NCBI GenBank assembly: GCA_009377525.1
Contig: WHTW01000006.1
Coordinates: 1 to 40,000 of the forward strand
Direction of reading: 5' to 3'
Length of the DNA stretch: 40,000 nt
Source: Rhodospirillales bacterium
GTDB taxonomy: Bacteria > Pseudomonadota > Alphaproteobacteria > Reyranellales > Reyranellaceae
The position numbers and the translations under genes are program-made. Under the pieces are notes generated by a model, which was not told where the DNA came from, searched no databases, and saw only the letters and a list, made by a program, of their open reading frames with translations. Shown piece after piece: positions 6,289 through 29,126 of this stretch (the stretch's first letter is position 1; every line of letters begins with the position of its first letter).

Positions 6289-6363
<75 letters not shown>

Positions 6364-6447: not shown

Positions 6448-8163
6448 ATGGCGATCCTGTGCATGGCGCGACCGTGGAAGCATCCGAAGACTGGCGTCTA
6501 CTATTTCCGCCGGGTGATCCCCGAGGGACTGCGTCCGTTCGTTCCCGAGGGCGACACGGCCGCGCCCGAGCGGCGCCTAGCGAAGCACGAATACAAGCGC
6601 TCGCTCCACACGAAGGATGCACCCACGGCAAAGCGTCTCTATGCGGATGCCGCTGCGATTTGCGATGACTACTTCTCCTCACTGAGAGCCGCGAAGGAAC
6701 GAGCAGCCGCCACTGAGGTAGGAGGGCTCGCCAGCCAAGCGGCCGGCTCCAGGCACGCCACACCCGAGGCCTCGGCCACCGGGCACCCGACGACGTTCTC
6801 CCTCCGAGCGCTCGCAGCGGAGCTTGGTCAAGAGATCATCCAGCGCAACGCCGGGGCGCCGCCGGCTGCCGCATTCAAGAACAACCGAGCGATACCGCCG
6901 GGACCCTGGGGTACTCCGAGAGAACCTTGGGCCAGCCATCGATACGCCCTGGCGACCAGCCTTCGCGCGAAGATGCGGGCCAGTCAGCATGAGTACGTGA
7001 CCACACCTTCAAGGGAGTTCCTCGGGGCACGCGGCATTACTCTGTCGCCCGATGAACAGCAGTGGGAAGAGTTCTGCGAGCTTTCCTGCGAGGCGATCGA
7101 CGCGGCCCTAGAAACGCTCCAGCGACGCTACCGGCACGGTGACAACGACACTGCCACGAGCGACGCACCGTTGGTCCAGCGCTTCCCCGTAGGGATGCCT
7201 GAGAGCCGCCCGAGGGTTGCTATAGCGCCGCTAGGCGCGGCTATCACGGGCCTCATTGAGACGTGGGCGAAGGGGCGCGAAAACCCGAGACAACGAACAC
7301 GCGAGCGTTTCGCTCGAAGGCTTGAACAGTTCTCAGCCTTCCTCAAGCACGATGACGCGATGGCCGTCACAAGCAAAGACCTGAGACGTTGGCGTGACCA
7401 CCTTCGTAATGAGGGCCGCACGGCAAAGACTGTGAACGAGGATTGCGTTGCGGCGGTGACCACTGTCTTTCGGGCAGCATCGGCAGAGGAAGTTCTCCCG
7501 ACCTACCCCTTCCACGATTACAAGGCACTGAGAGAAGACAAAACGAAAGAGAACGCCCGCCGCCCCTACACCGAAGAGGAAGCCCGAAGGCTTCTCACTT
7601 GCGCTCGATTGCGCACGGACGCGCTACGCTGGCTGCCGTGGCTCATGGCCTATACCGGCGCGCGCATTGGCGAGGTTGCCCAGCTTCGCAAGGAAGACGT
7701 GAGAACCGAGCACGGCATTAAGGTCCTGCGGATCACGGGCGGCACTGAGAAGGGGCATGAGGTCAAGACCGGCTCGTCACGACGCGACGTACCGTTGCAC
7801 CGCGCGGTAATAGACGAAGGCTTCTTGAAGTACGTTGGCGGCGCGAAGGAGGGACCGCTCTTCTCCGACCTTCCGCCGGGCCGTCTCGGCAAGCGTGGGG
7901 ATGCGGCCTCCACTGAGTACCGCCGTTGGGCGCGCGGGGTGGTAGGCATAACGGACAAGCGGGCTGTGGCGCACTCTTGGCGTCACCGCATGGAAGACCA
8001 GCTACGCGAGATAGAGGCACCCGAGGAGGTAGCAGCGGCGATCACCGGCCGGACCCGCCAAGGGTCGCGGGCTGGATACGGCAAGGGACCGTCACTGGCG
8101 CTCCAGGCACGATGGCTGGCAAAGATACCGGCGGTGAAGCTCGGGGCGGACACCCGCACTTAG
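6448..8163 (+). CDS. int: Tyrosine-type site-specific integrase (571 aa)
   Basis: ATG at 6448 preceded by aggagagg; the track ORF start at 6319 lies inside the tRNA. N-terminus ARPWKHPKTGVYYFRRVIP is typical of alphaproteobacterial island integrases. Catalytic region: AYTGARIGEV...HSWRHRMEDQL...GYGKG (R..HxxR..Y). Confidence 0.9.
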   Translation: MAILCMARPWKHPKTGVYYFRRVIPEGLRPFVPEGDTAAPERRLAKHEYKRSLHTKDAPTAKRLYADAAAICDDYFSSLRAAKERAAATEVGGLASQAAGSRHATPEASATGHPTTFSLRALAAELGQEIIQRNAGAPPAAAFKNNRAIPPGPWGTPREPWASHRYALATSLRAKMRASQHEYVTTPSREFLGARGITLSPDEQQWEEFCELSCEAIDAALETLQRRYRHGDNDTATSDAPLVQRFPVGMPESRPRVAIAPLGAAITGLIETWAKGRENPRQRTRERFARRLEQFSAFLKHDDAMAVTSKDLRRWRDHLRNEGRTAKTVNEDCVAAVTTVFRAASAEEVLPTYPFHDYKALREDKTKENARRPYTEEEARRLLTCARLRTDALRWLPWLMAYTGARIGEVAQLRKEDVRTEHGIKVLRITGGTEKGHEVKTGSSRRDVPLHRAVIDEGFLKYVGGAKEGPLFSDLPPGRLGKRGDAASTEYRRWARGVVGITDKRAVAHSWRHRMEDQLREIEAPEEVAAAITGRTRQGSRAGYGKGPSLALQARWLAKIPAVKLGADTRT

Positions 8164-8172
8164 GCCCGAGCG

Positions 8173-8379
8173 GTGCACGATGCGTTCGGGACGACCCCGA
8201 CGAAGACCGCGAGGTTTGCCCAGATACTCCGCGAGGAGTTCGCCAAGATGTACGCCAGCGATCCATTTGAATGCTTGCGCGCGTCATTACGCTTCTGGGG
8301 CGTGACACTGCCCGAGGAGCCCGCCATGGGCACCCTGGACCCCGCCCAGATCGCCCACGCCGAATACCTCTTCGCGTAG
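8173..8379 (+). pseudogene. Relic of the C-terminus (motif C to end) of a second T7-type RNA polymerase
   Basis: VHDAFGTTPTKTARFAQILREEFAKMYA...EYLFA aligns with the end of the full-length RNAP in this island (VHDSFGTTPERAGDLAKVLRETFSEMYA...LYAFG) and with T7 RNAP IHDSFGT...FAFA. It begins 9 nt after the integrase stop, in the same frame. Confidence 0.7.
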
Positions 8380-8410: not shown

Positions 8411-8800
8411 CTGAGTATAACCATTGCGGCCCAAGCAACATCGGGACGGACACCGCCCCGCAAGGGAGCCCGCCATGTAACCCCATCAATCGGAGGTCAC
8501 GAATGCCCCATCTCACCATCCGCCGCTCGGTCGGCCAGATCACACTCACGGCCGCGCCTAGCCGCGCCTGTATCAGCGGACCGTCGTGAACCCCCGTTTG
8601 TCGCGATAACCCATTGGTGGCGCTGAGGGTTATTCGCTGAGTATAGGTAATGTGGGCCGGGCAACATCGGATTGACCCCCCTTGGCGGGGGCCAAAGCAG
8701 GGCTCAAGCCACTGCGTTTGCGATGCTTTACCTCTTTCGTGCCCATATGACGGACAGCCGCACCTAGCCGAGCACGAACGTCCCCCGTTCTCTTTTGTTT
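8411..8800 (+). repeat. Two diverged tandem copies (about 226-bp period) of a noncoding unit with conserved blocks
   Basis: CTGAGTATA at 8411 and 8637; GCAACATCGG at 8435 and 8661 (the same 24-nt offset in both copies); GCCGC(G/A)CCTAGCCG at 8551 and 8757; CCCCCGTT at 8591 and 8782. Confidence 0.6.
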
Positions 8801-8887: not shown

Positions 8888-9103
8888 ATGACAAATGATC
8901 TCATCTCTCTGGCCGACGCCGCCGCCGAGCTTCGCATTAGCACGAAGACCCTCGATAGGTGGCGACGTGCCGGCAAAGGCCCCGACTACCTTCGATCCGC
9001 AAGCGGCCACGTCCACTATAGCCGGCAGACCCTCGATACTTGGCGTGCACAGCAAGTGACCACCGAAAGCGTTCGCTACCTCTTGCTTGAGGGCGTTGCG
9101 TGA
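8888..9103 (+). CDS. AlpA/excisionase-like helix-turn-helix DNA-binding protein (71 aa)
   Basis: LISLADAAAELRISTKTLDRWRRAGKGPDY...HYSRQTLDTW has an HTH_17/MerR-type excisionase pattern. It is the first gene after the integrase module. Confidence 0.7.
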   Translation: MTNDLISLADAAAELRISTKTLDRWRRAGKGPDYLRSASGHVHYSRQTLDTWRAQQVTTESVRYLLLEGVA

Positions 9104-9576
9104 AAGCGCGCGAGGCGACATCGCCGCTCCAAGCCATTCGAGCCAAGTGTTTGGACTGTTCAATGGGCAGTCCCGCCGAGGTTCGCCGCTGCCATTTGAC
9201 CGACTGCGCACTGTGGCCGTTTCGCCTTGGCAAGGGGGCACCCATCTCCGAAGCCCAACGGGAAGCTCGCCGTGCGTCCGTCCGTAAAGCCGCCGCCAGC
9301 CACCTGAAGCCCCATACGGTACGGCGATTTGGAACAACGGACGAGACAGGTGGGGCTACCCCCCCGGTGAGACTGCGCTCTAAAAAGTCCCATACGGTAC
9401 GGGGGACACCGAGCGAAGCGCGGGCCGACGCTCTCGCCCGACGCCAAGCCGCAACCATCGTCGACAAGGGTATCCGCTATCGGAAGAAGCCTCTTACCTT
9501 TGAACAGGAGTACCACCTCATAATGCGGAAGCCGAGGACTGCCCACCCGAGCGGAGCGAGGGGCTCCCGTGGATGA
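9100..9576 (+). CDS. Cys4 zinc-ribbon protein common in mobile elements (158 aa; C-terminal half doubtful)
   Basis: GTG start overlaps the upstream stop (GTGA). IRAKCLDCSMGSPAEVRRCHLTDCALWPFRLGKG gives C-x2-C-x10-C-x4-C. The C-terminal half contains DNA-level repeats at 9311/9389 and 9546. Confidence 0.55.
   Translation: MKAREATSPLQAIRAKCLDCSMGSPAEVRRCHLTDCALWPFRLGKGAPISEAQREARRASVRKAAASHLKPHTVRRFGTTDETGGATPPVRLRSKKSHTVRGTPSEARADALARRQAATIVDKGIRYRKKPLTFEQEYHLIMRKPRTAHPSGARGSRG
9311..9402 (+). repeat. 14-bp perfect direct repeat CCCATACGGTACGG x2, 78 bp apart
   Basis: Copies at 9311-9324 and 9389-9402, with similar flanks (aagCcccatacggtacggCg and aagTcccatacggtacggGg). Confidence 0.8.
9546..9565 (+). 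repeat. 20-bp motif cccgagcggagcgaggggct (left member of a perfect inverted pair)
   Basis: Exact reverse complement of 19521-19540. Confidence 0.9.
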
Positions 9577-9784: not shown

Positions 9785-12700
9785 ATGGACGAGGCACTTC
9801 TAAATCGTATTCGAGCCAGCATAGCCGGCGCTCCAGTCCCGCCAGCCACTTCGCCACCGACAGCCTCGCCCAAGGCCGGCGCTATGGACGAAGCTACGAT
9901 GGAAAGAATTCGAGCCAGCATCGAGCGTGGGCGTACCGTCCCACCTCGCCCCACGGATCAAACTGCAATCGCGAACCCGACACACGCGGGCCTTCCACAG
10001 TCTGAGCCTCACAGCGCCGACGCCGCGCCCGGCCCGAACCTTGCTGCAGCCGTACAGGGCAACCGGGACACCCTCGGGATGCTCGCCAACACGCTCCTAG
10101 GGGGCGCCCGAGACGCTCTCCAGGGCACCCTCGAAACAGTCCATAGCGCAGCCGGCCTCGCGGGTGACGTAGCGGAGAGCATGGGCACGCTGCCCGATAG
10201 CTTCCCGCGGCCTACCGCCGACAACGCGCCGAAGCTTCCCGAAGTCCCCCGTGCGGACGAGAGCACGAACGAAGGCGTCGCCATGAACGTCGCCCGAGAC
10301 CTGGAGCGCTTCGTGCTCGGCTTCGTGGGTGGTGGTGCGATCCTGAGAGGTGCGGGAGTGGCGACGAACACCCTTCGAGGAGCGGCCGGCGCTGGCTTCG
10401 TGGGAGACTTCGTGGTCACGGGAGCCAACGACAACCGCTTGGTCGACCTCTTCGAGAAGGTGCCAGCGCTACGGGGGCCGTTCCTTGAGTACATCTCGAC
10501 GGACGGTGATGAGGACCTCCTCAAGCACAAGCTTGGCGCGGCCGTAGAGGGCCTGTTCTTCGGGGGAGCTATCGACGGGCTCCAAAGGATCGCTGGCGTT
10601 ATCCGAAGGTCCATCAAGGCGGAGAAGACGGGCGGTGCTGAGGCGGCTGAAAGGGTGATCCAAGAGTCAGCGGAGGAGATGCAGGAGGCTGCCACGGAGA
10701 TCAATGCGTGGAGCGGCGCACCTAGCGAGGCTATCGACCCAGGTGCTCCCGTGGCGACGCACCCACCGGTCCGGCTGGACGAACGTGGGCAAATCGAGAT
10801 GTTCCCCGAGGTGGTCCGCCGTGAGGAGGCGATCGAGGATATCCAGCTTCAAATCAAGGGCGACCGCTACCTCGACCCTGAGACAGGCAAAGAGAAGCTA
10901 CTTCCCATCTCCAATCGAGCGCGAGAGGAGTTGACCAGTGTTGCCGCCGATCCTAACGCGCCCTTGCACATCGACAAGCTCACCCCGGAGACCCGAGAAG
11001 AACTACTCCGTGCCCTTGCGTCGGACAATGAAGCGGCTCGCTTCTTCAATCCGAAGACTGTTCGCGGCAAGACGTTCGCGCTGGACGATGCGCGGCGGGC
11101 CGACTTCGACGCGGCTATGGAGCGCTCGCTCTCGATCCCGTATGCCACGCTGAAAGCCGAGAACCCCGGCGCGGCTATCGAGGACACCCTCAGCACCTTC
11201 CTGAACTACCGCTACATGGAGAGCGCCGATAGCGTGAAGGTGACGCTGGACGAGATGGCCACGGCTATGGAGCCTCAGGTTGCAAAGCACCTCGGCGGCT
11301 TTCCCCAGACGCACGCGCAAGTCCAGGAGACGGCAGGATGGCTCGGCATGAAGCCCGAAGTCCTCCTTGCATCACTGTCCCAGCAAGCACGCGCTGCCGA
11401 ACACATGCCCGCTCTTCTCGTGGCAGGTAAGACGTGGATACAAAGCCTCGCCCGCGACATTCACCAGATTAGCAAGGCGATCGATAGCGGCATGGCGACG
11501 GACACCGCGAAGATAGAGCTTGTGCGCCGGCAGGACATCCTTGCCGATCTCATCTCGACGTTGAAGTCCGTCCAGACAGCGAGCGCGCGCACGACAGCGG
11601 CGGGCAGGATCAGGACGAGCGACGCGCTCACCCATGAGGAAATGGGAACGCTGCTTCGCGAGGTGGGCGAAGACAACTTCAAGCTCATCAGCCGCAAGCT
11701 CGCGCTTACCGAGGGCAACCCGCAGGCGGTCATCTCCATCCTTGAGCCAACGTTCGGGCAGAAGTCGTGGGGCGTGGCGAACGAGTTCTGGATCAACGCG
11801 ATCCTCAGTGGCCCGGCAACGCACGTTATCAATCTCACGACGGGCTTGCGTAACACTGCCCTCTTCCCGCTCTTCAAGATCACTGGCGGCCTGCTTACGG
11901 GCGACATGAAGTCGGTCCGCATCGGCATCGGCCAGTACGCCGGCCTTCGTGGTGCGGTCTTCAACAGCTTCGAGATGGCCAAGCGGTCCCTCCTCACGGA
12001 GAACGCCTACGTTGATGCGAGCTTCCACCAGATCGAGCGCGAGCGGCTCTGGATCAAGGCGGACACCTTCAGCACGGACCCCAGCGGCACGCTTGGGCAA
12101 GGCATCGAGGCGCTCGGCACGGCCATTCGTATGCCGTCGCGGTTCCTCACGGCTGAGGATGAGTTTTTGAAGCAGTTGACCTATCGTGCTTCGGTGACGG
12201 CGAGGGCTCACGAGGAAGCTATTGAGCGGGGATTGTCGGACAACCGGACGGTCTCCTACTTCGTGGACGGCGAGAAGAAGATGATATCCGAGGTGGATGA
12301 GTACGTCCGTGATCGGATGCAAGAAGCGTTTCACCCCAGGATGGAACACGGGCTAGACCAAGCGGCCCTTCGGGATGCTCGCCGTGCAACGTTCACGAGC
12401 CCGCTCAAGACAGCGACTTGGGGCAACATGACCAGTCTTGGCGAGATAGCCCAGCAAGCCGCAGCAAGGGCACCGTGGATACGACACACGATCCTGCCGT
12501 TCACGAGGGTGCCCACGAACATCTTCCGCGAGATGATTTTGGAGAGCCCACTGGCTCCGATCCGGAAGCAGTTCTGGACCGACCTGAGGGCCGGCGGAGA
12601 AGCACGGTCCGACGCTATCGGGCGCGTGGCGCTCGGCACAACATTCTGGACTGGCGCGGCAATGCTCGCGAGCGAAGGGATCATTACCGGCAAGGGTCCT

Positions 12701-13711
12701 ACTGATCCGAAGCTACAGAAGCAGTGGCGAGCGGCGGGCAATCAGCCGTATTCAATCCGGTTCGCGAGCATGGGGCCGGACGGCAAGGACCTGTTCATCT
12801 CCTACAACAGGTTCGACCCGACAGCCGGTGTGCTCGCGCTGGCGGCCGACTTTGCGTACATCGCCGCTCACGTAGACGAGCGCACGCAAGATGCGCTGGC
12901 CATGACGCTCACGCTCACGCTGGCGAACAATCTCAACAGCAGAACTTATCTTCGTAGCCTGACGGAGTTGACTTCGATCCTCGGGTCTAATGATCGCGCC
13001 GGCCCGCATCTAGTGGAGCGCTGGTTGAATTCGCGGGCTGCTTCCTACGTACCCCGGATCGTGTCGGCGGTTAATCCAGATGATACGTTGAGGGATGCCC
13101 GTGACGCGCTGGAAGCGATCCAGGCGAGGATACCGGGATTGAGTGACGGACTACCGCCTCGGCGAGACACCTTCGGCGAGCCCATCGTGCCGTCCGTTGG
13201 CTGGCCGTACAGCCAGGTCAATCCCTTTGCAATAGCGGTGGGCAAGGATGGAGCGGCGCGGCGCGAGCTAGGTTACTGGGCTGAGAGCGAAACCCGCAGT
13301 CAATTTGAGATGCCCTCGCCGAAGATCGATGGACTTATCGATCTACGCGACGCCAAGAACTCACAGACTGGCCAGAGCGGCTATGACCGCTGGCTCGAAA
13401 TCCTGACTGAGCCAAGGTTCGGAGGAAAGACCGCAGAGGAGCGGATTGACGATATCGTGGCAAGCGATGGCTACAGGAATTTGAAGGAGCGTGGCGTTGA
13501 AAGCCCGATCTATCGCCGGCACCCCGCCGTTGAATTCTTGAGAGAGCAACTTGGATCACACTACGGCATTGCCCGCGAACTCATGCTTGCGGAAGTCGGC
13601 TTCGAAGACCTCCGCGCCGCGTTGCAAATCTATGAGGCGAGCAAGCGCGCCGTCCCTGTGGGCGCCGTAGCACCGTCCAACCCGGCGCTTGATCAGTTGC
13701 TAAAGCGGTAG
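9785..13711 (+). CDS. Large orphan protein (1308 aa), function unknown; possibly a phage internal/ejected virion-type protein
   Basis: Uninterrupted 3.9-kb ORF with non-shadow composition. The N-terminus has two MDEAxxxRIRASI modules and an Ala/Pro-rich linker. I found no NTPase, polymerase or lytic transglycosylase motif. Confidence 0.85.
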   Translation: MDEALLNRIRASIAGAPVPPATSPPTASPKAGAMDEATMERIRASIERGRTVPPRPTDQTAIANPTHAGLPQSEPHSADAAPGPNLAAAVQGNRDTLGMLANTLLGGARDALQGTLETVHSAAGLAGDVAESMGTLPDSFPRPTADNAPKLPEVPRADESTNEGVAMNVARDLERFVLGFVGGGAILRGAGVATNTLRGAAGAGFVGDFVVTGANDNRLVDLFEKVPALRGPFLEYISTDGDEDLLKHKLGAAVEGLFFGGAIDGLQRIAGVIRRSIKAEKTGGAEAAERVIQESAEEMQEAATEINAWSGAPSEAIDPGAPVATHPPVRLDERGQIEMFPEVVRREEAIEDIQLQIKGDRYLDPETGKEKLLPISNRAREELTSVAADPNAPLHIDKLTPETREELLRALASDNEAARFFNPKTVRGKTFALDDARRADFDAAMERSLSIPYATLKAENPGAAIEDTLSTFLNYRYMESADSVKVTLDEMATAMEPQVAKHLGGFPQTHAQVQETAGWLGMKPEVLLASLSQQARAAEHMPALLVAGKTWIQSLARDIHQISKAIDSGMATDTAKIELVRRQDILADLISTLKSVQTASARTTAAGRIRTSDALTHEEMGTLLREVGEDNFKLISRKLALTEGNPQAVISILEPTFGQKSWGVANEFWINAILSGPATHVINLTTGLRNTALFPLFKITGGLLTGDMKSVRIGIGQYAGLRGAVFNSFEMAKRSLLTENAYVDASFHQIERERLWIKADTFSTDPSGTLGQGIEALGTAIRMPSRFLTAEDEFLKQLTYRASVTARAHEEAIERGLSDNRTVSYFVDGEKKMISEVDEYVRDRMQEAFHPRMEHGLDQAALRDARRATFTSPLKTATWGNMTSLGEIAQQAAARAPWIRHTILPFTRVPTNIFREMILESPLAPIRKQFWTDLRAGGEARSDAIGRVALGTTFWTGAAMLASEGIITGKGPTDPKLQKQWRAAGNQPYSIRFASMGPDGKDLFISYNRFDPTAGVLALAADFAYIAAHVDERTQDALAMTLTLTLANNLNSRTYLRSLTELTSILGSNDRAGPHLVERWLNSRAASYVPRIVSAVNPDDTLRDARDALEAIQARIPGLSDGLPPRRDTFGEPIVPSVGWPYSQVNPFAIAVGKDGAARRELGYWAESETRSQFEMPSPKIDGLIDLRDAKNSQTGQSGYDRWLEILTEPRFGGKTAEERIDDIVASDGYRNLKERGVESPIYRRHPAVEFLREQLGSHYGIARELMLAEVGFEDLRAALQIYEASKRAVPVGAVAPSNPALDQLLKR

Positions 13712-13714
13712 CCC

Positions 13715-14218
13715 GTGACTACCGCCAAGTTACACTCAGCTGAAGAGCTAGCAGTGGTGCGGGCAACGTTTGCGTTGGACGGGGACGAGCTTCTTCGCAA
13801 AGGCAAGCCGGTCAAGCACCGGGCCAATGCCAACAAGTCGCCGTACAAATCCGTCGAATTCAGGTTGGGCAACGCGCGAGTGCATTGGAAGCTGTCTCGG
13901 CTGAAATTCTTCTTAGCTCATGGCTGGCTCCCGCCCGTGGTCGACCACAGAAACGGAGACAGGTTGAACGACAGTCTTGCTAATCTTCGGGCAGCCTCTT
14001 ATGCCCAGAACAACCAAAATTCGCGACGCCGAAAGACCCGTCTTGGTCTCCCGAGAGGCGTGGAGCGGAACGGCAAACGGTTTGTGGCTAGGCTCAAAAC
14101 GGATGGCCGCATGAAATACCTGGGAACTTACGACACCCCCGAAGCCGCGTCTCTCGCCGTCCAGGAGAAGAGCAAAGAGCTTCGTGGCGCTTTCCATCGG
14201 TACAGGCGGAAGGGGTAA
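13715..14218 (+). CDS. HNH endonuclease with C-terminal AP2 DNA-binding domain (homing-endonuclease type, 167 aa)
   Basis: VDHRNGDRLNDSLANLRAASYAQNNQN (HNH_3 pattern) followed by GVERNGKRFVARLKTDGRMKYLGTYDTPEAASLAV (AP2 pattern). Starts 4 nt after the 1308-aa gene. Confidence 0.8.
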   Translation: MTTAKLHSAEELAVVRATFALDGDELLRKGKPVKHRANANKSPYKSVEFRLGNARVHWKLSRLKFFLAHGWLPPVVDHRNGDRLNDSLANLRAASYAQNNQNSRRRKTRLGLPRGVERNGKRFVARLKTDGRMKYLGTYDTPEAASLAVQEKSKELRGAFHRYRRKG

Positions 14219-14612: not shown

Positions 14613-15104
14613 ATGTCTTTCACTTCCAAAAACAAGAACAAGCCCACCACGATCGACGGCCACGCGCTTCCCCCTGGCATTCGCCCGAAGAACGCGACGA
14701 TGCGTCTTGTCCGTGACAAAGACGGCAAGGCTTCCTTCAAGATCGTAGAGCTAGGCGTTCCCGAAACCGTGACGGTCGGCCGAACCACAATCAATCACCT
14801 CGCAGACGGTCCTTACAGCCGCCGGGAAACCGCCGAGATCAACGCGGAGCAACTCCGCAAGGGCTTGCCAGTTCAGCGCGTACAACAGCACTGGCAGCAT
14901 TCGGTGTCGGCCGACTTGACCGAGAAGCCGAGTGAGCTTGCCCGGAGCCTCGCAAGCGACAAGGGCAAGGTGGGCGTCGCCAAGAAGGCCGGCGCGAAGT
15001 ATGCCGAAGACGAGAACGCGCGCCGCAAGAGTTACAACGGCCCGCAGCAGACTTCCGTGTCCGTGCGGATGGGTGAACGCGCCCCGCGCAAGGCCGGGAC
15101 CTAA
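14613..15104 (+). CDS. Hypothetical basic protein (163 aa)
   Basis: ORF on the island coding strand with non-shadow Lys-rich composition. No recognisable domain. Confidence 0.5.
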   Translation: MSFTSKNKNKPTTIDGHALPPGIRPKNATMRLVRDKDGKASFKIVELGVPETVTVGRTTINHLADGPYSRRETAEINAEQLRKGLPVQRVQQHWQHSVSADLTEKPSELARSLASDKGKVGVAKKAGAKYAEDENARRKSYNGPQQTSVSVRMGERAPRKAGT

Positions 15105-15111
15105 GCGCGCG

Positions 15112-15411
15112 ATGACGGCTAAGACACGCGTGCTCGACGTTGAGGCCCGCATCGCGGTACTTGAGGTACTTCTAGAGCAGTCCCCAGCCTCTCCCCCGCT
15201 GGCTCCCGGCGGCCCCGTGAAGATGCGCGTGAGCAACTTGGAAGTTCGCCTGGAGGCACTGGAGGCGGCTGTCGGTGGTGGCTATGAGCCGCCGTTCGAT
15301 CCGAGCGCGACGTTACCGCTTGCATGGTGGTCGCCGTCGCCGTGGAAGAGAAGGTTGGAGAAGCTGGAGGCGCGCTTGGAGGCACTGGAGACGTTCGTAG
15401 CAGCCCTTTGA
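15112..15411 (+). CDS. Coiled-coil protein, SPWKR paralog A (99 aa)
   Basis: Internal ATG at 15112. Heptad-like repeats VEARIAVLE / LEVRLEALE / LEARLEALE and the motif WWSPSPWKRRLE. Paralogous to the next gene. Confidence 0.55.
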   Translation: MTAKTRVLDVEARIAVLEVLLEQSPASPPLAPGGPVKMRVSNLEVRLEALEAAVGGGYEPPFDPSATLPLAWWSPSPWKRRLEKLEARLEALETFVAAL

Positions 15412-15412
15412 G

Positions 15413-15712
15413 TTGACCGTGGCTCAGTATCGAGGACTGCCCCCAAAGGCGCGAGTGGAAGCCGTTGAGGCGCGCGTGGCGGCCTTGGAAAGCGGTGGCG
15501 GTGGGGCCTCCGATCTCTCCGTGATAGCCGCGCCCCGCTTCGCTATGGTGCACTTGTCAAACTTGGAGACGCGCATGAGGGCGCTTGAGATCACGCAAGA
15601 GGGATATAGCGCCGCCCGGACGTGGCCATCGTGGTCCCCGTGGAAGCGTCTAGAGGCACTTGAGACGCGAGTGGCAGCCTTGGAGAGCGCGAGCCCTAGC
15701 ACGTCGCCGTAG
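15413..15712 (+). CDS. Coiled-coil protein, SPWKR paralog B (99 aa)
   Basis: Starts 2 nt after paralog A (TTG, or GTG a few codons in). VEARVAALE / LETRMRALE / LETRVAALE and WSPWKRLE. Same length as paralog A. Confidence 0.55.
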   Translation: MTVAQYRGLPPKARVEAVEARVAALESGGGGASDLSVIAAPRFAMVHLSNLETRMRALEITQEGYSAARTWPSWSPWKRLEALETRVAALESASPSTSP

Positions 15713-15856: not shown

Positions 15857-16351
15857 ATGCCGATAGGTGCCAGTCTTATTGCCAAAGCCGAAGTCCGAAC
15901 GCTTCTTTGTGTTGATGACAAATGCCTTCACGCGTGGCGCTCGCGTCATGCCGGTCCTGCTCGGGAAGGGGACGGATACGACCTCGCCCAAGTTGAGGAA
16001 GTGAGAGCACAAATGCTCATACTCGGCAGCTATGGGCTCCAGGTGAAGAATGCCGAGCGGCCGTTGGGCTCGATAACCTTCTCACGAGAAGACGACACTG
16101 AGACACTAGGCGCGGCCCAAGTTAAGAAACTGTTGGCCATCGATCAAAGCATCTTGTCTCACTGGCTTGCCGCTCTCCCATTTCCCATTGGGCCAATACC
16201 GAAGAGGACGAAGATCAAAGGCCCGTGGAAGTACCGGAAGAACCAAGTGCTAGAAGTGCGGGCTGCGCTTCTCATTCTAGGTGATAGGTACAAGTTGGGC
16301 CTAACCGACACTCCTCATTTCCTGACACACGCGGGACCGACTTGGCAGTAA
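15857..16351 (+). CDS. Hypothetical protein with two internally duplicated HTH-like modules (164 aa)
   Basis: Module 1: KAEVRTLLCVDDKCLHAWRSR...VEEVRAQMLILG. Module 2: AAQVKKLLAIDQSILSHWLAAL...VLEVRAALLILG. This is the most AT-rich coding stretch of the island. Confidence 0.55.
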   Translation: MPIGASLIAKAEVRTLLCVDDKCLHAWRSRHAGPAREGDGYDLAQVEEVRAQMLILGSYGLQVKNAERPLGSITFSREDDTETLGAAQVKKLLAIDQSILSHWLAALPFPIGPIPKRTKIKGPWKYRKNQVLEVRAALLILGDRYKLGLTDTPHFLTHAGPTWQ

Positions 16352-18978
16352 TCCCGGTGGACGCCGACTTGATAGCGCCGCTAGAGGAGCCCTCGCTCCG
16401 CTCGGGCGCGGCTATGCGCGAGCAGGAGAACTTGGAGCGCGAAGCGTTTGAAACGGGAAGGCGGCGGCTCAATGCATTCCTAAGGAAAGCCCGAGAGACA
16501 GGCACGGAGAGCTTCACAGCGCCGGGACAGTGGATTGTCCGGCAAGTGATCGGCCCCATGGCGGATATGCTGTCGCAAGAGTTTGTGACCAGCAATAGCG
16601 CCCGTGCCACGAGAGGCGGAGCGATGATCCACGCCATCAAGGACATGGACCCGCTCTTCCTTTGCGCCGTTGCGGCCCGCACGGCTCTAAACGGTGCGTG
16701 GTCTCGGGACAACGGAGGAAAGCTCTCGCTAACGCTGGTGTCCGCCAAGATCGGCGCGGCCATCGAAGACGAGTGGCGGTGGCACGAGTGGCGAAAGCTC
16801 GACCCAAAGCAAGCGCGATGGGCACAAGACGTTGTGAACGAAGGTCGTAGTGCGGGCGGAGCCCGTTACAAGCGAGCAGCGGCGCGCAAGGTGGGCGGCT
16901 TGTTCCTCCCGGAAGAGCTATTGGCTCCGTGGCCGTCCGACAAGCAAGTAGCGCTCGGGTTGCGCTTCGTGGACTACATGGTTAGCCCGTCAGTCGGCCT
17001 TTTCGAGGTGACTAAAATGTTGTCCGGACGCCGTGGACCCTCAAAGGCCAAGCTCGCACTTAAGCTCAGCCCAATCGCAGTCCAGCGAGCCGACGAAGTC
17101 GTAGACCTCTTCGCCACTTCTCAGGCGCTCACGTGGCCGCTCATCGTTCCGCCAAAGCCCTGGACGGCGCCTACTGGAGGCGGATTTTGGTTCCGCGAAA
17201 GGACAGCCACCGACATTTGCCCGGAAGGTCTCAAGCCGTTCCCGCTGGTCCGATGGGCAAGCCCCGAGCAACGCAAGGCGCTCGATCGCGCTGATCTCTC
17301 CACCGTGTACGCGGGTCTCAACGCGGTCCAAGAGACTCCCTGGAGGATCAACAAGCGCGTCCTTGGGGTTTGGTCTGCGATGCTCGACGGCGGCTTCGGC
17401 CCAACAGACGATATCGTCGAGTGGGATAACGAAGAGCCGCCCGAGCGCGTCCCCGATGACGAGTGGGAAGACATGTCGGACGAAGACCGCCTCGAACACC
17501 GGCACGAAATATCAGAAGTCTTTGGACGAAACCGCAAGGCCGTCTCAAAGCGCGTGCGTCAGCATCGCCTCAAGCGTGTGGTTGATCGCTTCGCCAAGTA
17601 TCCGGCGATCTACTTTGCTTACAACTGTGACAGACGAGGCCGCGTCTATACATCGTCTTCGGATATCTCGCCTCAAGGGAGCCGTCTAGAGAAGGGACTG
17701 CTGGAGTTTGCGGTCGGGGATGAGCTTTCGGATACAGGCGAGGCCCCCTCGCCGATCCGCTCGGGCGTGTACTGGCTCAAGGTGGTAGTGGCGAACTACT
17801 ACGGCTTCGACAAGGTGAGCTTCGATGACCGGGCGAAGTGGACAGACGCAAACAAAGAGATGATCCTCTCGGTAGCAGCCCGTCCTCTTGATGACCAAAG
17901 ATGGTGGAGCGCGAGCGAGAAAACGAGATGGCAGTTCCTTGCCGCGTGCTTTGCCTATCAGGAGTGGAAGGAAGAGACGACGGCCGGCCGGCGGTACGTC
18001 TGCCACTTGCCGGTGATGCTCGACGGCACTTGCAATGGGCTCCAGCATTGGGCGGCATTATTGCGTGACGAGAAGGTTGGGCAGTTCGTCAATCTTGTGC
18101 CCGGTGACAAGCCCATGGACCTCTACGGGAGGGTTGCCAGTAGGGCGAGGGAGGAGATCGAAAGAGCGGTCGAGAGACGGCAACAGTGGGCGCTCGAATG
18201 CCAAGCGCTCGGGATCGACCGCAACTTCGCCAAGCCGGTCGTCATGGGCTTCCCTTACGGGCGGACCCGGTGGTCGATCTACGAGGAGATTGAGAAGGCG
18301 TTGCGGCGGAAGATAGAGAAGAGCGACGGCTCAAGTCCAAACTGGTGGACCGACAAAGAGGCTCGCTCGGGTGTCGTCAAGTTCCTCGTGGAGACGCTTT
18401 GGACGGCCACGATTGCGGAGACTGAGAAGCCCGATGCGGGGCGCAAGTATCTACAAGCGGTTGCCCAAGAGTGGAAGAAGGCCGCACCGGATACGCCGTT
18501 GGCTTGGATGAGCCCGAGCGGCTTCCCCGTGGTCCTGGCGCGGCGTGACCAAGGGCCAATCGAAGGGCGCGTCCGGGAGAAGCTCTTGGGAAAGCTTGTC
18601 ATGCCCAGATTGTGGGCCGGCAAGGGTGCGCTCTACTGGTCGAAGCTGATCTCAGCCATTGCACCCGGCTTCATTCATAGCTTGGACGGAGCCCACTTGG
18701 TCATCGCGCTTGGGGCGGCGGCCCGTTCGGAGATCAATCAGCTAGCGTGTGTGCACGATAGTTTTGGGACAACCCCGGAACGGGCTGGTGATTTGGCGAA
18801 GGTGCTCCGGGAGACGTTCTCGGAGATGTACGCCGAGGGTGATCCCATAGCCGCCCTTGAGGAAGCCCTCAGGCAAGCCGGCGGGCACCCGAACGCAGCA
18901 CCGATCCCGCACGGTCGACCGGAACCGGGGGGCCTTGACGTGGGCGCCATGCGCGGTTCGCTCTACGCGTTCGGGTAA
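16342..18978 (+). CDS. T7-like single-subunit DNA-dependent RNA polymerase (about 873-878 aa; start uncertain: TTG 16342, GTG 16357 or ATG 16414)
   Basis: Motif A [22 protein letters not shown] matches T7 [34 protein letters not shown] matches T7 WFPYNMDWRGRVY. Motif B region is [10 protein letters not shown] and motif C is VHDSFGT. The C-terminus is LYAFG. The length is close to the 883 aa of T7 RNAP. Confidence 0.93.
   Translation: [878 protein letters not shown]
16390..16406 (-). repeat. Copy of the CCCGAGCGGAGCGAGGG island motif (inverted orientation) inside the RNAP 5' end
   Basis: ccctcgctccgctcggg is the reverse complement of the 9546 motif, one C shorter. Confidence 0.75.
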
Positions 18979-18992
18979 AGGGCGGTTGCGGA

Positions 18993-19060
18993 CCCGTACA
19001 GACGATCCAGGGCTTCGCGTGGGGAAAAACCCTCCGGGAAACCTAAATCGTCTGTACGGG
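18993..19060 (+). repeat. 14-bp perfect inverted repeat with a 40-nt spacer just downstream of the RNAP stop
   Basis: cccgtacagacgat (18993-19006) and atcgtctgtacggg (19047-19060). No U-run follows. Confidence 0.7.
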
Positions 19061-19208
19061 CTCCCTAGCCTAGCTAGCGTCGATCAGGGCACTTGACAGG
19101 CCGGCGGGAAGTCGATAACGGCCGCACCACCGACTGTGGCCCGCTTGCCATATTTAGTTAGCCATCTACCTTGCGGAGAGAGATCACTCAAGGACTTCCC
19201 CGAGAGCT

Positions 19209-19560
19209 TAATGAGGAAGCCCACCGGAGGTGAAGGGCTCATGGCTAATGAGGAGCCCACGTAGATAGATTATCAATGAAACTATCCTACCTCTTCCCGA
19301 GGCCATCAGGCCGAAGGGCTCTCTTCCGAGCGAAGCGAGGCTACTACCCTAGAGGGATCATGAGGGAAGCCCACTGACAGTGGATGTCCTCATGGCGTCC
19401 TAGAGGTAAGGGAAGATAGCCCCTCGGCCCGAAGGCCTCGGGGAAGGGAAGGATAGCCCACCTATAAAGAACCAATGGAAGGATAGCCCTAGAGCCGGTT
19501 CAGGAGCTAGCTCAAGAGACAGCCCCTCGCTCCGCTCGGGGATCAGGATTGATAGCCCAT
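19209..19560 (+). repeat. Array of 7 same-orientation short degenerate repeats (two subfamilies ending in GCCC)
   Basis: T(A/C)ATGAGG(G)A(A)GCCCAC at 19209, 19246 and 19358. GGA(A/T)(G/T)(G)ATAGCCC at 19410, 19446, 19476 and 19546. Spacing is irregular (30-112 bp). Confidence 0.75.
19521..19540 (-). repeat. 20-bp motif (right member of the perfect inverted pair)
   Basis: agcccctcgctccgctcggg is the reverse complement of 9546-9565. Confidence 0.9.
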
Positions 19561-19562
19561 GG

Positions 19563-19838
19563 ATGATCCACCGTCGACGAAGCTCTCGACGAAACCCCCG
19601 TTGTTCCCGAGACCTCCACCGAGGCGGAGCCGATGGGCTACCGAGACGTTCCCAGGGACTTCGCCCGGAGGCCCCCTGGGCCATGGCTGGTGATGGCACC
19701 ACTCGACGCAAACATCTGGGTACCTACGACACTCCCGAAGAAGCCGGAGCGGTCGCCAAAGCAGCCCGCGTGGAGCTTGCAGGCGTGTTCCTGCCCGGCC
19801 CCACTCGATACCGCGCGAAGATGGCGTCCGGCCGATGA
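19563..19838 (+). pseudogene. Relic of an AP2-domain (homing endonuclease-type) gene
   Basis: ...RPEAPWAMAGDGTTRRKHLGTYDTPEEAGAVAKAARVELAGVF parallels GRMKYLGTYDTPEAASLAVQEKSKELRGAF of the intact HNH-AP2 gene. No HNH part is present and the upstream frame is junk. Confidence 0.5.
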
Positions 19839-20291: not shown

Positions 20292-20915
20292 ATGACCACC
20301 AGCACCACCCCGAGGAAGCCCAAGAGAGCCGCCCTGTACCTCCGCGTATCGACCGACCGGCAGACCGTCGAGAACCAGCGGCAAGCCCTGGAGGCCATCG
20401 CAGGCCATCGTGGATGGGATATCGTCGCCACCTACGGTGACAGAGGAGTTAGCGGCGCGAAGGGCCGAAAGGATCGCCCCGAGTTTGACCGGATGCTTAG
20501 CGAAGCGGGACGCGGCAAGTTCGATGTAGTGATGGCCTTCGCCCTGGACCGCATCGGCCGCTCCCTCGGGGACTTGCTTCACACGATCCGCCATCTTGAA
20601 GAGTGCAAGGTCGACCTGTTCATAGACAAACAGATGCTCGATACGACAACGCCCCAAGGGAAGCTCTTGTATGCGGTGACCGGCGCGTTCGCCGAGTTTG
20701 AGCGCGACATGATCGTCCAACGCGTCAACGCTGGGCTAGACCGTGCGCGCACCGCTGGCGTCACCTTGGGCCGCCCGAGGATCGCTGAGAAGACCGAGGC
20801 AGCCATCCGCAAGGCCATCACCAAGGGTGACAAGGGCAAGCACAAGCTCGCCGCTCAGTTCGGCGTGGGCTCGGGGACGGTGGCGCGCATCAAGGCGGAG
20901 ATGGGCCGCACCTAA
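20292..20915 (+). CDS. Serine recombinase, resolvase/invertase family (207 aa)
   Basis: ATG at 20292 preceded by aaggag. AALYLRVSTDRQ (catalytic Ser), VVMAFALDRIGRS, FAEFERDMIVQRVNAGL and a C-terminal HTH (LAAQFGVGSGTVARI). Confidence 0.9.
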   Translation: MTTSTTPRKPKRAALYLRVSTDRQTVENQRQALEAIAGHRGWDIVATYGDRGVSGAKGRKDRPEFDRMLSEAGRGKFDVVMAFALDRIGRSLGDLLHTIRHLEECKVDLFIDKQMLDTTTPQGKLLYAVTGAFAEFERDMIVQRVNAGLDRARTAGVTLGRPRIAEKTEAAIRKAITKGDKGKHKLAAQFGVGSGTVARIKAEMGRT

Positions 20916-21434: not shown

Positions 21435-21560
21435 GGTTAGGTACCCGCTCACCCGAAAGGCGGGCACTTCCAAGAGGTCCTCCAGGGTGGTACAAGGGAG
21501 TACAAGCGCGGCTTACCTAAGTCCTTGATTTATAGGCACTTGGGCATGGTCCACCGGCAA

Positions 21561-21583
21561 TTCAATCCTGTCCGGCAGCACCA
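21561..21583 (+). repeat. attR: 23-bp direct repeat (displaced tRNA-Thr 3' end)
   Basis: ttcaatcctgtccggcagcacca is identical to 6341-6363. Confidence 0.85.
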
Positions 21584-27318: not shown

Positions 27319-27350
27319 CTCTTCAACCGGCGTGAGCCGGGTTTATGTCA

Positions 27351-27983
27351 TCAGGTGCGCGGAGGCAGCTGGATCTTGGCGTCGGTCAGCAGCTTCTCGA
27401 GCACCGGGATGCCGCCGGCATAGTCGCCGGCGTCGCACTTGGCGATCGCTTGCGGGCCCGGGCCCTGAGCGGTCGTGCGGTCATAGTTGCGCCACAGCCT
27501 GGAGAGCTGCGCACAATAGGCCTGGTCGTTGGTCATCGGTGCCGCGGCCATCTGCGGCATGGTGACCTCGACACGACGATTCTGCGGTTCGCGCACGCCG
27601 TCGCCGGTCTGCACCAGCAGGCCCGCTTCGCCGCGGCCGACGGTGGTGATGGCGGCGGCGGGAACGCCGAGCTTGACCAGCGCGCCCTTGACGGCGTTGG
27701 CGCGGCGCAGCGACAACGCCATGTTGTAGGCTTCGGTGCCGGTCGTATCGGTATGGCCGGTGGCCGTGATACGTGCAGCCTGCTTGGCCTTGAAGGCGTC
27801 GCGCGCCTGCTCAAGCACGTTCAACGAGGCATCCGACAGCCGGGTGCTATCCCAGTCGAAGAACACCATGAAAGCCTGCGGCGGCGGCGGTGGCGGCGGC
27901 GGTGGCGGTGGCGGTGGCGGCTCAGACGCGCATGCGCCCAACAGGTAGGCGGCTGCGACGAGACCCAACAACTTCTTCAGCAT
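27351..27983 (-). CDS. OmpA-family lipoprotein paralog with a poly-proline linker (210 aa)
   Basis: Lipobox LLGAC, a run of about 14-15 Pro, OmpA_C motifs (ITATGHTDTTGTEAYNMALSLRRANAV...NRRVEV), and the same Cys-containing C-terminal domain as 4218-4877. Confidence 0.85.
   Translation of the reverse strand: MLKKLLGLVAAAYLLGACASEPPPPPPPPPPPPPPQAFMVFFDWDSTRLSDASLNVLEQARDAFKAKQAARITATGHTDTTGTEAYNMALSLRRANAVKGALVKLGVPAAAITTVGRGEAGLLVQTGDGVREPQNRRVEVTMPQMAAAPMTNDQAYCAQLSRLWRNYDRTTAQGPGPQAIAKCDAGDYAGGIPVLEKLLTDAKIQLPPRT
27879..27920. repeat. (NGG)14 simple-sequence tract encoding the poly-Pro linker
   Basis: cggcggcggcggtggcggcggcggtggcggtggcggtggcgg. The paralog at 4218-4877 has only PPPP at this position. 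Confidence 0.9.
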
Positions 27984-28086
27984 AGATTTTCCCCCTCAAA
28001 CGTGGCGTCACGCGACCGCGGGCCACAAAACACGGTGGACCGCCGGGCACGCGGCGCCATTTTGCCGGCGCGCGCAACCCTAGGCA

Positions 28087-28605
28087 ATGGAAACACGCGG
28101 CGGACACCGTCCCCCGCCAAATGCTTCGGACATGTCACCCGCCAGTCACACTGCAAATATCGATCACTCGCGAACGCCTGTTCTTCGCGAGTCAAGGAAC
28201 GAATGGGGCCGCCTTGCAGCACCGGCTCTGCTGGCCATGGCTTGCGCGCTGGTATTCCTGCTGTTCCATCTCGGCTCGCAGCGGCCACCTTGGATCTTCG
28301 CCGCCGCCCTGGTCGCCGGGCTGGCGATCGGCATGCTGCGGGGCTTCACCCTCCAGCTCCAGGTCGACCACATGTTCGACAAGGTCCGCCTGCCGCGGGC
28401 GCGCGGCTCGTTCCTGGTCGCCCTGGGCCTGGTGGCCGCCGTGCTGCTCGAGATCGGCGGCTCTTTGGCGGGGCCGGACGGCCTGCCCTTTCGTCTGATC
28501 GCGCCCGAGATTGCCGCAGCCTGCGCCGGCATGCTAACCGGGCGGGCATTGGCCATTGCGATGCGTTGGCGGGGAGCGCCGCATGTCGACCTTCATCGCC
28601 TGTAG
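28087..28605 (+). CDS. Small multi-TM membrane protein, paralog family member 1 (short form; alternative start 28132)
   Basis: Core LRGFTLQLQVDHMFDKVRLPRARGSF...GRALAIAMRWRGAPHVDLHRL is shared with 28633, 30066 and 30510. Confidence 0.55.
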   Translation: METRGGHRPPPNASDMSPASHTANIDHSRTPVLRESRNEWGRLAAPALLAMACALVFLLFHLGSQRPPWIFAAALVAGLAIGMLRGFTLQLQVDHMFDKVRLPRARGSFLVALGLVAAVLLEIGGSLAGPDGLPFRLIAPEIAAACAGMLTGRALAIAMRWRGAPHVDLHRL

Positions 28606-28632
28606 AGCCCGGCAACGCGCCGTCGAGGGCCA

Positions 28633-29097
28633 ATGCTGAACGTCCTTCATCTGCTGGCGGCGCTGGCGATGGCCGGCTGCCTCTACGCCCTGTGGCGCGA
28701 GGCGCGCGGTATCTCCCAGTCGCGCGGCCATCTGATGGTGGCCCCGCCGCTGGCCTTCGGTTGCGCGCTGCTGATGATCGGCCTGACCGAGCCCGACCTG
28801 CAGCAGCCCGACGTGTTGCGTATCGCCATCGCGGCGGGCGCCCTGCTGGGCGCCGCCCGCGGCTGGTTCATGGCCGTCGACATCGACCCGCTGTGGTCGA
28901 CCGTGCGGCTGCCGAGCGGCAGCGACGGCTTCTGGATGGTGATCCTGCTGGCGTTCGTGGTCGCCATGGCCGCCGCCGCGCCGTTCGTCTCGACGCAGGG
29001 CCAGTCGTACGTGCCCTATGCCACGGCCGCCGTGGCGTTCGGTGCCGGCTTCCTGTCGACCCGGGCCGTGGCGGTCTATCTGCGCACCCGGAGCTGA
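28633..29097 (+). CDS. Small multi-TM membrane protein, paralog family member 2 (long form, 154 aa)
   Basis: ARGWFMAVDIDPLWSTVRLPSGSDGF...TRAVAVYLRTRS; about 5 hydrophobic helices. Confidence 0.6.
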   Translation: MLNVLHLLAALAMAGCLYALWREARGISQSRGHLMVAPPLAFGCALLMIGLTEPDLQQPDVLRIAIAAGALLGAARGWFMAVDIDPLWSTVRLPSGSDGFWMVILLAFVVAMAAAAPFVSTQGQSYVPYATAAVAFGAGFLSTRAVAVYLRTRS

Positions 29098-29126
29098 CTA
29101 CACTGATCCCCGTGTGGGAGGGTTTC

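Follow-up and report, generated by a model that had tools for sequence, protein, structure and literature searches.

A T7-family RNA polymerase gene carried by an integrative element

This study concerns an RNA polymerase (RNAP) gene in a 40,000-nucleotide (nt) stretch of a Rhodospirillales metagenome-assembled genome (MAG; contig WHTW01000006.1, positions 1 to 40,000), here called the window. A first-pass annotation had described the gene as an apparently intact, chromosomal single-subunit polymerase of the T7 family. The gene does lie in a contig of bacterial chromosome, but it does not belong to the host. It is carried by a 15.2-kb integrative element that occupies the 3' end of a tRNA-Thr gene and is bounded by two attachment (att) cores (Table 1). 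The genes listed between these cores are all on the + strand, and the GC content inside the att repeats is ~0.60-0.63, compared with 0.65-0.70 in the flanks, which consist of ordinary chromosomal genes (UPF0182, metallophosphatase, GDSL lipase and MORN protein). With an intact integrase, an excisionase-type helix-turn-helix (HTH) gene and near-identical att cores, the element looks excisable.

The polymerase open reading frame (ORF) is open for 878 codons from its TTG, with no internal stop, as had been stated at the outset, and the three start codons between which the first-pass annotation could not decide all remain candidates. An identical protein is on record as a hypothetical protein on a 100,587-bp contig of a Rhodospirillales MAG (P0001, GEV13_03170); its length of 873 amino acids (aa) in NCBI implies that the start was called at the GTG. 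Homology to T7 RNAP sets in at the codon of the ATG, and the closest relative, in locus L006 (related loci are designated by L and a number), has a similar short N-terminal extension on its RNAP. GC content by codon position (0.63/0.48/0.73) is like that of the neighboring gp16-like gene and supports that the ORF is a real gene.

The protein matched Pfam RNA_pol (PF00940, E 3.9e-79) and RPOL_N (PF14700, E 3.4e-12), aligned end to end with PHROG 414 'RNA polymerase' (residues 24-877, E 4.3e-182) and gave a partial match to PHROG 2166 'N4-like RNA polymerase' (E 9.6e-58). Chains of T7 RNAP, to which it is 28% identical, matched at E 2e-90 (aligned residues 25-842). In an alignment of 29 sequences, all catalytic and NTP-binding residues of T7 RNAP were conserved (T7 positions D421, R425, K441, D537, Y571, R627, K631, Y639, G640, H784, H811, D812 and F882). 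In the 878-aa numbering, D430 and R434 correspond to T7 D421 and R425 of the T/DxxGR motif, and K451, Y595, H779, H805 and F877 are further conserved positions. Both catalytic aspartates of the palm are kept, D561 in motif A (T7 D537) and D806 in motif C (T7 D812), as are R627, K631, Y639 and G640 of motif B and the O-helix, where the adjoining R632 is a proline, as in L006. The hallmark blocks of the family were thus borne out by Pfam, PHROG 414, the T7 chains and the alignment, and every motif string quoted by the first-pass annotation was found in the translation, together with the C-terminal YAFG. This C-terminal 'foot', which is FAFA in T7 RNAP, retains the conserved F877; its terminal glycine also occurs in L093, and other relatives have S, D or A. 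Relative to T7, the protein carries W422R, a change common to L090. The segment that aligns with the T7 specificity loop is present as a beta-hairpin, shorter than that of T7, unrelated to it in sequence and hypervariable in the clade described below.

An AlphaFold2 model built on 25 sequences (predicted local distance difference test 83.8, predicted template modelling score 0.81) has the full-length fold, including the N-terminal promoter-binding domain, and gave template modelling scores of 0.77-0.85 against T7 RNAP elongation complexes. Taken together, the sequence and the modelled structure indicate that the ORF encodes a full-length, probably active T7-family single-subunit RNAP.

Table 1. 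Features of the integrative element and its borders (window coordinates). A and B denote the two polymerase positions described in the text.
Feature	Position	Strand	Evidence or remark
tRNA-Thr(GGT)	6289..6363	+	ARAGORN; Rfam tRNA 72.8 bits
attL core, 3' 29 nt of tRNA-Thr	6335-6363	+	Direct repeat D15
Tyrosine integrase with N-terminal DUF6538	6448..8163	+	Pfam DUF6538 2.6e-13, Phage_integrase, Phage_int_SAM_1; 6448 is the first ATG after the tRNA
A-type RNAP stub, last 70 codons, motif C VHDAFGTT to EYLFA and stop	8167..8379	+	Translation
26-nt conserved element, copy 1 (..TTGCGGCCCAAGCAACATCGG)	8419..8444	+	Also directly 3' of the RNAP stop in L007, L010 and L011
26-nt conserved element, copy 2	8645..8670	+	Repeat D13
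HTH_17 (excisionase/AlpA/MerR-like) protein	8888..9103	+	Pfam HTH_17 1.7e-07, 31.8 bits against a 27-bit cut-off
Cys-rich ORF	9100..9576	+	ORF; no Pfam, PHROG or PADLOC match
Full-length (1308 aa) ejection protein similar to T7 gp16 (internal virion protein D)	9785..13711	+	PHROG 6651 1.8e-49; tblastn, podovirus 'internal virion protein D'
HNH-AP2 homing-type endonuclease	13715..14218	+	Pfam HNH_3 5.9e-07 and AP2; PHROG 99 2.4e-31
Two or three ORFs with coiled-coil LEARLEALE repeats	14613..15712	+	ORFs, codon-position GC; no family matches
Tandem double-HTH protein; stop overlaps or abuts the RNAP start candidates	15857..16351	+	25% identity over 158 aa, E 2.6e-12, to o174 of L175
B-position T7-family RNAP, intact (the ORF under study)	16342..18978	+	Starts TTG 16342, GTG 16357 or ATG 16414
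Long hairpin directly 3' of the RNAP stop	18990..19062	+	Minimum free energy -54.3 kcal/mol, z -5.9
Non-coding stretch with short repeats	19190..19560	.	GATAGCCC x4, GGAAGCCCAC x2, 15-mer CCGAGCGRAGCGAGG x2
Second HNH-AP2 endonuclease, frameshifted stub, AP2 part only	~19620..19838	+	PHROG 99 2.4e-05; three-frame translation
Small serine recombinase (resolvase/invertase type)	20292..20915	+	Pfam Resolvase 1.8e-41
attR core	21555..21583	+	27/29 identical to the tRNA-Thr 3' end; direct repeat D15

Gene content of the island

Apart from the gp16-like ejection-protein gene, tblastn with three T7-like reference sets detected no primase-helicase, DNA polymerase (DNAP), portal, scaffold, capsid, tail-tube, fibre or terminase gene in the 40 kb, and an Rfam scan returned the tRNA only. 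Two small ORFs separate the HTH_17 gene from the gp16-like gene. The gp16-like gene is 79% identical in aa and 80% in nt to gp16 of L004, a 40.7-kb metagenomic contig with a complete T7-like structural module of portal, scaffold, capsid, tube, nozzle, gp14, gp15, gp16, fibre and terminase, and the homology ends at the borders of that gene; the HNH-AP2 gene that follows in the window occupies the exact place of the tail-fibre gene in the L004 phage. The resolvase is 85% identical in aa and 77% in nt to the resolvase 3' of the second polymerase gene of L175. More distant relationships link the integrase to those of L010 (50% identity; that integrase adjoins a tRNA-Ser), L175 (41%) and L090 (about 40%), the HTH_17 gene to the gene 3' of the RNAP in L007 and L010 (50%), and the double-HTH protein to o174 of L175, which contains two copies of the 88-aa HTH of L091. 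Judged by sequence similarity, the parts of the island are of different origins, with a gp16 near that of a complete phage and an RNAP that has no relative above 47% identity.

Two decayed neighbors noted in the first-pass annotation, an RNAP relic and an AP2 relic, both exist (Table 1). The RNAP relic is a stub of what we call an A-type polymerase: it is 62-63% identical to the C-termini of the L007, L010 and L011 RNAPs and 39% identical to the intact polymerase of the window. The integrase stop (TAG, 8161-8163) and the stub lie in the same reading frame, one codon apart. Because the integrase C-terminus departs from those of its relatives after IPAVK, the left end of the deletion appears to lie in, or just after, the integrase 3' end. 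In the host flanks, a UPF0182 family protein is encoded at 153-2957 (E 5.9e-291) and an 863-aa MORN-repeat protein at 27345-29936.

A rare polymerase clade in small elements, some with two polymerases

A word-indexed search gave nothing above 32% identity beyond the identical protein, and it was an exhaustive search over 1.84 billion cluster representatives that yielded the closest relatives, P0047 (47% identity), P0048 (42%) and P0050 (39%). Together with two genome loci, the proteins from this search define a small clade at 33-47% identity, with a neighbor-joining bootstrap of 100 for the clade and 98 for the pair formed by the window RNAP and L006. Scans of metagenomes and IMG/VR with the RNAP alignment gave at least 600 matches, of which those listed are ordinary T7-like phages, and a gp16 scan of IMG/VR found nothing.

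Most clade members sit in small elements of a recurrent plan. The 15.9-kb contig L175 (= L096) carries a DUF6538 tyrosine integrase, RNAP_A, a double HTH, gp14, a small ORF (o92), RNAP_B, two small genes, a resolvase and SLFN_AlbA_2. In L091/L092, host genes are followed by a large serine recombinase, RNAP_A, an HTH gene, gp14, o94 and the start of a second RNAP, which is 60% identical to that of L009. L010, from a Reyranella MAG, and L007 have a tRNA-Ser, an integrase, two minus-strand genes, RNAP, HTH, gp14 (in some cases followed by a gp15-like gene), o94, o258 and a resolvase-like gene; no attR for L010 was found within its locus. L009 has a large serine recombinase, a repeat array, HTH_17, gp14, RNAP and HNH; L006 has gp14, o80 and RNAP; and RNAP directly follows an integrase in L090 and a large serine recombinase in L008. 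Near the RNAPs of all these elements, tblastn found no replication or morphogenesis genes. The elements are mosaic, in that gp14 and o94 are 77-86% identical between elements whose RNAPs are ~40% identical. The nearest genomes with related elements are those of Reyranella and Enhydrobacter, in keeping with the Rhodospirillales label of the MAG.

Two of these elements hold a pair of divergent, apparently intact T7-type RNAPs, ~33% identical to each other (L175, 1844-4222 and 6046-8376; L091, 10001-12346 and 13761-14162), and in both the pair flanks an HTH gene, gp14 and a 92-94-aa ORF. All catalytic residues are kept in both polymerases of L175. The window element matches this plan, with a recombinase followed by an A-type RNAP (the stub), then HTH_17, the double HTH and the gp16-like gene in place of gp14, and then RNAP_B followed by a resolvase. 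It is tied to L175 by the resolvase (85% identical), the integrase (41%) and the homologous double HTH. From these homologies and the stub, we read the window as recombinase-RNAP_A-HTH-internal virion protein-RNAP_B-resolvase, in which RNAP_A has been deleted in place to 70 codons and RNAP_B is therefore the only polymerase left.

It is very improbable that this arrangement is an artefact of composition, with two RNAP genes brought together by unrelated tandem insertions or by mis-assembly of a MAG, and with no two-polymerase element behind them. The source is indeed a MAG, and the left part of the island (integrase, stub and HTH) resembles L010/L090 while its right part (RNAP and resolvase) resembles L006/L175. 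However, repeat analysis detected the att core at the two borders but not within the island, from which it follows that both polymerase genes belong to one unit; moreover, the order A..gp14..B occurs on three independent contigs from other samples, and gp14 adjoins RNAP_A in four loci and RNAP_B in four loci.

The clade also contains the RNAP of a complete prophage, the 42.9-kb prophage of Enhydrobacter aerosaccus ATCC 27094 (L011/L174; IMG/VR IMGVR_UViG_2582581318_000001), which is 40% identical to the window RNAP and 62% identical to the stub. This prophage has the ordinary T7 order of RNAP, small genes, endonuclease I, primase-helicase and DNAP, with no gp14 beside the RNAP, which indicates that the RNAP-gp14 adjacency of the small elements is derived. 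The small elements thus appear to descend from temperate T7-like phages that lost the central part of their genome. Among the 80 genome loci that carry related RNAPs, the majority are also ordinary T7-like prophages, with primase-helicase and DNAP 4-8 kb downstream.

Several further features were seen in and around related loci. Defence-like genes lie beside some of the elements, namely an ApeA N-terminal domain in L010 (4777-6165), Trypsin_2 and AAA_13 in L007 (13880-15324), and SLFN_AlbA_2 and DUF4238 in L175 (11000-14222). In Pseudomonas petrae P2653 (L086, 7355-20264), an independent, scrambled remnant without a DNAP or capsid gene holds an integrase, RNAP, an Ant-like gene, HNH, two gp15 fragments, an N-terminally truncated gp16, two small internal virion proteins and a second HNH, and here again HNH endonucleases flank the ejection-protein genes.

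Selection on the polymerase and its neighbors

The first-pass annotation had taken the intactness of the polymerase beside decayed neighbors as a sign of selection. This is weak evidence, because all of the island's remaining large ORFs (those for the integrase, the 1308-aa gp16-like protein, HNH and the resolvase) are intact as well, and because both relics arose by deletion or frameshift and not by slow point decay. Indirect support for the suggestion comes from the related small elements, whose RNAPs have ratios of nonsynonymous to synonymous substitution rates (dN/dS) of 0.20-0.28. Between L007 and L010, at synonymous distances (dS) of 0.5-1.5, dN/dS is 0.22 for RNAP, 0.27 for gp14, 0.04 for HTH, 0.23 for the resolvase-like gene and 0.12-0.22 for others, and it is 0.20 between RNAP_B of L175 and the RNAP of L009. 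In the window, the resolvase compared with that of L175 gives 0.12 and the gp16-like gene compared with that of phage L004 gives 0.16. Overall, the values of 0.04-0.28 show purifying selection on the genes of the related elements.

For the window RNAP itself, dN/dS is not computable, because its nearest relative, at 47% identity, is too distant for dS. We therefore turned to conservation counts. Of 105 clade-invariant columns, 5 have another residue in the window RNAP, compared with 6 for L006, 5 for L090, 4 for L175 RNAP_B, 14 for L175 RNAP_A, 15 for L091 and 0-2 for L007, L010, L011 and L009. It also departs 11 times from columns conserved across T7-like phages, and some of these changes are traits of the clade or of a subclade (R632P with L006, the terminal glycine with L093 and W422R with L090). 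Tajima relative-rate tests were significant with L010 or L011 as the outgroup only, and not with six others; given this inconsistency across outgroups, we claim no acceleration. Selection on the window copy is thus plausible, and the conservation counts show no sign of relaxed constraint.

Non-coding elements and the search for promoters

Downstream of the stub lie two copies of a 26-nt conserved element that recurs in relatives at 8177 and 11300 of L010, 5364 of L007 and 12480 of L011, and that forms a six-copy array with ~100-nt spacing before the HTH_17 gene of L009 (1939-2537). Its ending, CCAAGCAACATC, is common to elements whose RNAPs are only ~40% identical. In T7, the phi1.1 promoters and an origin sit just 3' of the RNAP gene, and the 26-nt element (TATAnnGGACCAAGCAACATC-like) is likewise found 3' of A-type RNAP genes. 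The CCAAGCAACATC element resembled a promoter of the T7 phi1.1 type. It occurs once in 14 kb of the complete prophage, is repeated in the array of L009 and has no counterpart in L175, L091 or L006, a distribution that makes origin or operator as probable a role as promoter. Scans for sigma-70 promoters and terminators stayed at background level.

The RNAPs of L007 and L010, 84% identical overall, are near unrelated in the segment aligned to T7 residues 739-770. Selection for diversity in promoter choice could explain this divergence, as could a loop that has ceased to read DNA.

Directly 3' of the window polymerase is a long hairpin with an equivalent in L009 (6255-6325, z -3.2). The two share the stem base CC(G/C)TACAG...CTGTACGGG, and their inner stems differ in sequence but still pair. 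L006 retains the 5' arm of the same hairpin at 3285-3323, where the contig then ends. This post-RNAP hairpin of B-position genes could be a processing, termination or recombination site. TRF found no tandem arrays 3' of the RNAP.

Further repeats lie in the non-coding stretch beyond the hairpin. Four copies of GATAGCCC fall within 145 nt at 19415-19558, beside the two copies of GGAAGCCCAC, and the window as a whole has seven compared with 0.92 expected; the cluster is iteron-like, with no recognizable initiator gene nearby. The 15-mer CCGAGCGRAGCGAGG occurs nine times in the window compared with 0.97 expected, and seven of these copies are inside the island, in both orientations (9409, 9547, 14411, 14450 and 19326 on the + strand; 16391 and 19525 on the - strand). 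Among them are a perfect 20-nt inverted pair (9546-9565 and 19521-19540) and a copy at 16391-16405, 9 nt upstream of the ATG of the RNAP; a related copy is found in L009 at ~6560, upstream of the HNH gene. A role for CCGAGCGRAGCGAGG as a general resolvase/invertase site was rejected, as the repeat is absent from L175 despite the 85% identity of the two resolvases.

Origin and possible lifestyle of the element

Our preferred reading, to which we assign a probability of roughly 0.6, is that the RNAP is the transcription engine of a reduced, mosaic and possibly helper-dependent descendant of temperate T7-like phages of Reyranella/Enhydrobacter-type alphaproteobacteria. The polymerase would be produced in small amounts or after induction, perhaps through coupling to the preceding double-HTH gene, and would transcribe the co-directional + strand genes (8.9-21.5 kb) from element-specific sites. 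The element may then depend on, or interfere with, a complete co-resident T7-like phage, in a satellite-like lifestyle. The element has no replication or packaging genes of its own, RNAP and ejection genes are conserved in its relatives, and its gp16 stays close to the gp16 of a complete phage; dependence or interference is the most economical reading of these three facts.

A number of observations weigh against it. Among the island proteins, Pfam, PHROG and PADLOC recognized no replication module (primase/Rep), replication initiator, small terminase or capsid-remodelling gene, and in place of an origin only repeat-rich non-coding stretches were seen. A clear promoter present in multiple copies of one orientation was not found in the island, where no pair on the + strand exceeded 17/22 matches; the 26-nt element has the sparse and uneven distribution described above, and the segment aligned with the T7 specificity loop varies extremely, even within the L007/L010 pair of RNAPs at 84% identity. 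About 1.3 kb 3' of the RNAP holds no convincing gene, and the island copy is more damaged than its relatives, with RNAP_A deleted, the gp14/o94 module absent and the AP2 gene a stub. The related elements are all metagenome-derived, mostly on short contigs without defined ends, and the only clade member in IMG/VR, by a clade-specific DNA pattern and, among the matches listed, by the RNAP alignment scan, was the complete prophage. Finally, the searches returned no close orthologue of the window RNAP, so that selection on this copy is unmeasured.

The damage to the island is also what speaks for the main rival, a dead fossil: a defective T7-like prophage remnant that is shrinking by deletion, with an RNAP that is open through youth and has no current function. 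Two deletion or frameshift relics, a missing gp14 module, a mosaic module order, the unmeasured selection on this RNAP copy and the absence of a detected promoter set all fit such a remnant, and L086 shows that scrambled assemblages of RNAP, gp15 and gp16 fragments and HNH genes do arise. We nevertheless consider the fossil unlikely, although it has to be taken seriously. The reduced plan recurs with RNAPs that are 33-47% identical, in intact ORFs with dN/dS of 0.04-0.28 at dS of 0.5-1.6, and neutral decay across such divergence would have closed an 800-codon ORF. Moreover, the integrase, the HTH_17 gene and the att cores (27/29) of the window element are intact, and its RNAP has no excess of private changes at clade-invariant sites.

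The retention of ejection-protein genes without the remaining virion genes could also point to domestication by the host, in which RNAP and gp16-like protein have been co-opted, be it to act against phages as a decoy or trigger or to drive a host-beneficial gene; the defence-like neighbors of related elements (ApeA-like in L010, Trypsin_2 and AAA_13 in L007, SLFN_AlbA_2 and DUF4238 in L175) agree with this. We regard it as improbable: PADLOC finds no defence component among the island proteins, the RNAP is still part of an element that has an integrase and att sites, and the element family is patchy and rare and not conserved in one host lineage.

The reading as a reduced T7-like descendant can be extended to a bolder and, on present evidence, doubtful proposal. 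T7 RNAP primes replication at the T7 origin. The small elements, integrative and 10-16 kb in size, may be satellites of T7-like phages, or parasites that interfere with them, and the first of their kind; they would have discarded replication and morphogenesis genes, kept one or two orthogonal RNAPs for a private transcription cascade and perhaps for priming at an origin of their own, and would load their own gp14, gp15 or gp16 into helper-built particles. The window member would live on its B polymerase alone.

Neither the enzyme family nor T7-like prophages are new, and the interest of the polymerase rests on its context rather than on the ORF itself. T7-type RNAPs in bacterial chromosomes are usually explained by ordinary T7-like prophages. 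Here, a rare and well-supported RNAP clade is found in small elements that are unable to build virions and that keep RNAP(s) and ejection genes under purifying selection. In the literature we could search, whose coverage is incomplete, we found T7-like prophages, but neither a published satellite that carries an RNAP nor a T7-like element with two polymerases, and no paper that brings together satellites, T7-like phages, RNA polymerase and a helper phage; to that extent, a T7-type RNAP clade associated with reduced elements, of which some have two divergent RNAPs on either side of an ejection-protein module, is undescribed. Should the elements prove to be autonomous parasites of T7-like phages, they would represent a new type of satellite, in a phage family for which none is described, and a natural case of two orthogonal single-subunit RNAPs in one small genome, of practical use as a supply of new polymerase-promoter pairs. 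As fossils only, they would still document a repeated route of T7-like prophage reduction.

Comparison with known systems

The window polymerase belongs to the same length class as T7 RNAP (PDB 1CEZ, 1H38, 1S77) and shares with it the N-terminal domain and palm, fingers and thumb, motifs A, B and C, the T/DxxGR motif and a C-terminal aromatic foot. It differs in W422R, R632P, the YAFG terminus, the shorter specificity-loop segment and its home in a 15-kb island.

T7-like prophage elements with an integrase beside the RNAP are reported to be widespread, and Pasto, HTVC019P and LUZ100 have been discussed in this context (PMC10134795). As in these phages and the Enhydrobacter prophage, the window element combines integration at a tRNA with a recombinase directly upstream of an RNAP. 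Temperate T7-like prophages are, however, ~40 kb long and encode endonuclease I, primase-helicase, DNAP, portal, capsid, tail and terminase, whereas the window element has 15.2 kb, gp16 only and a two-polymerase plan.

Phage satellites (P4, PICI/cf-PICI and PLE) resemble the window element in their size of 10-16 kb, an integrase at a tRNA or gene hotspot, an AlpA/excisionase-type HTH, an incomplete virion set and a few helper-like structural genes, and they carry defence-like cargo of the kind that is also found near relatives of the window element. Unlike them, the window element has no recognized primase/Rep, small terminase or capsid-size gene, and instead carries a phage-type RNAP and ejection proteins; hints of a link to a helper are the 79% identity of its gp16 to that of a complete phage and its absence from the matches listed in the IMG/VR scans. 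To our knowledge, no described satellite family carries a phage-type RNAP and ejection proteins.

Two phage-type polymerases that act in sequence within one genome are found in N4, as the virion RNAP and RNAPII. The two-polymerase elements described here differ from N4, to which they are unrelated in architecture and gene content, in that both of their RNAPs are full-length T7-type paralogues of one clade.

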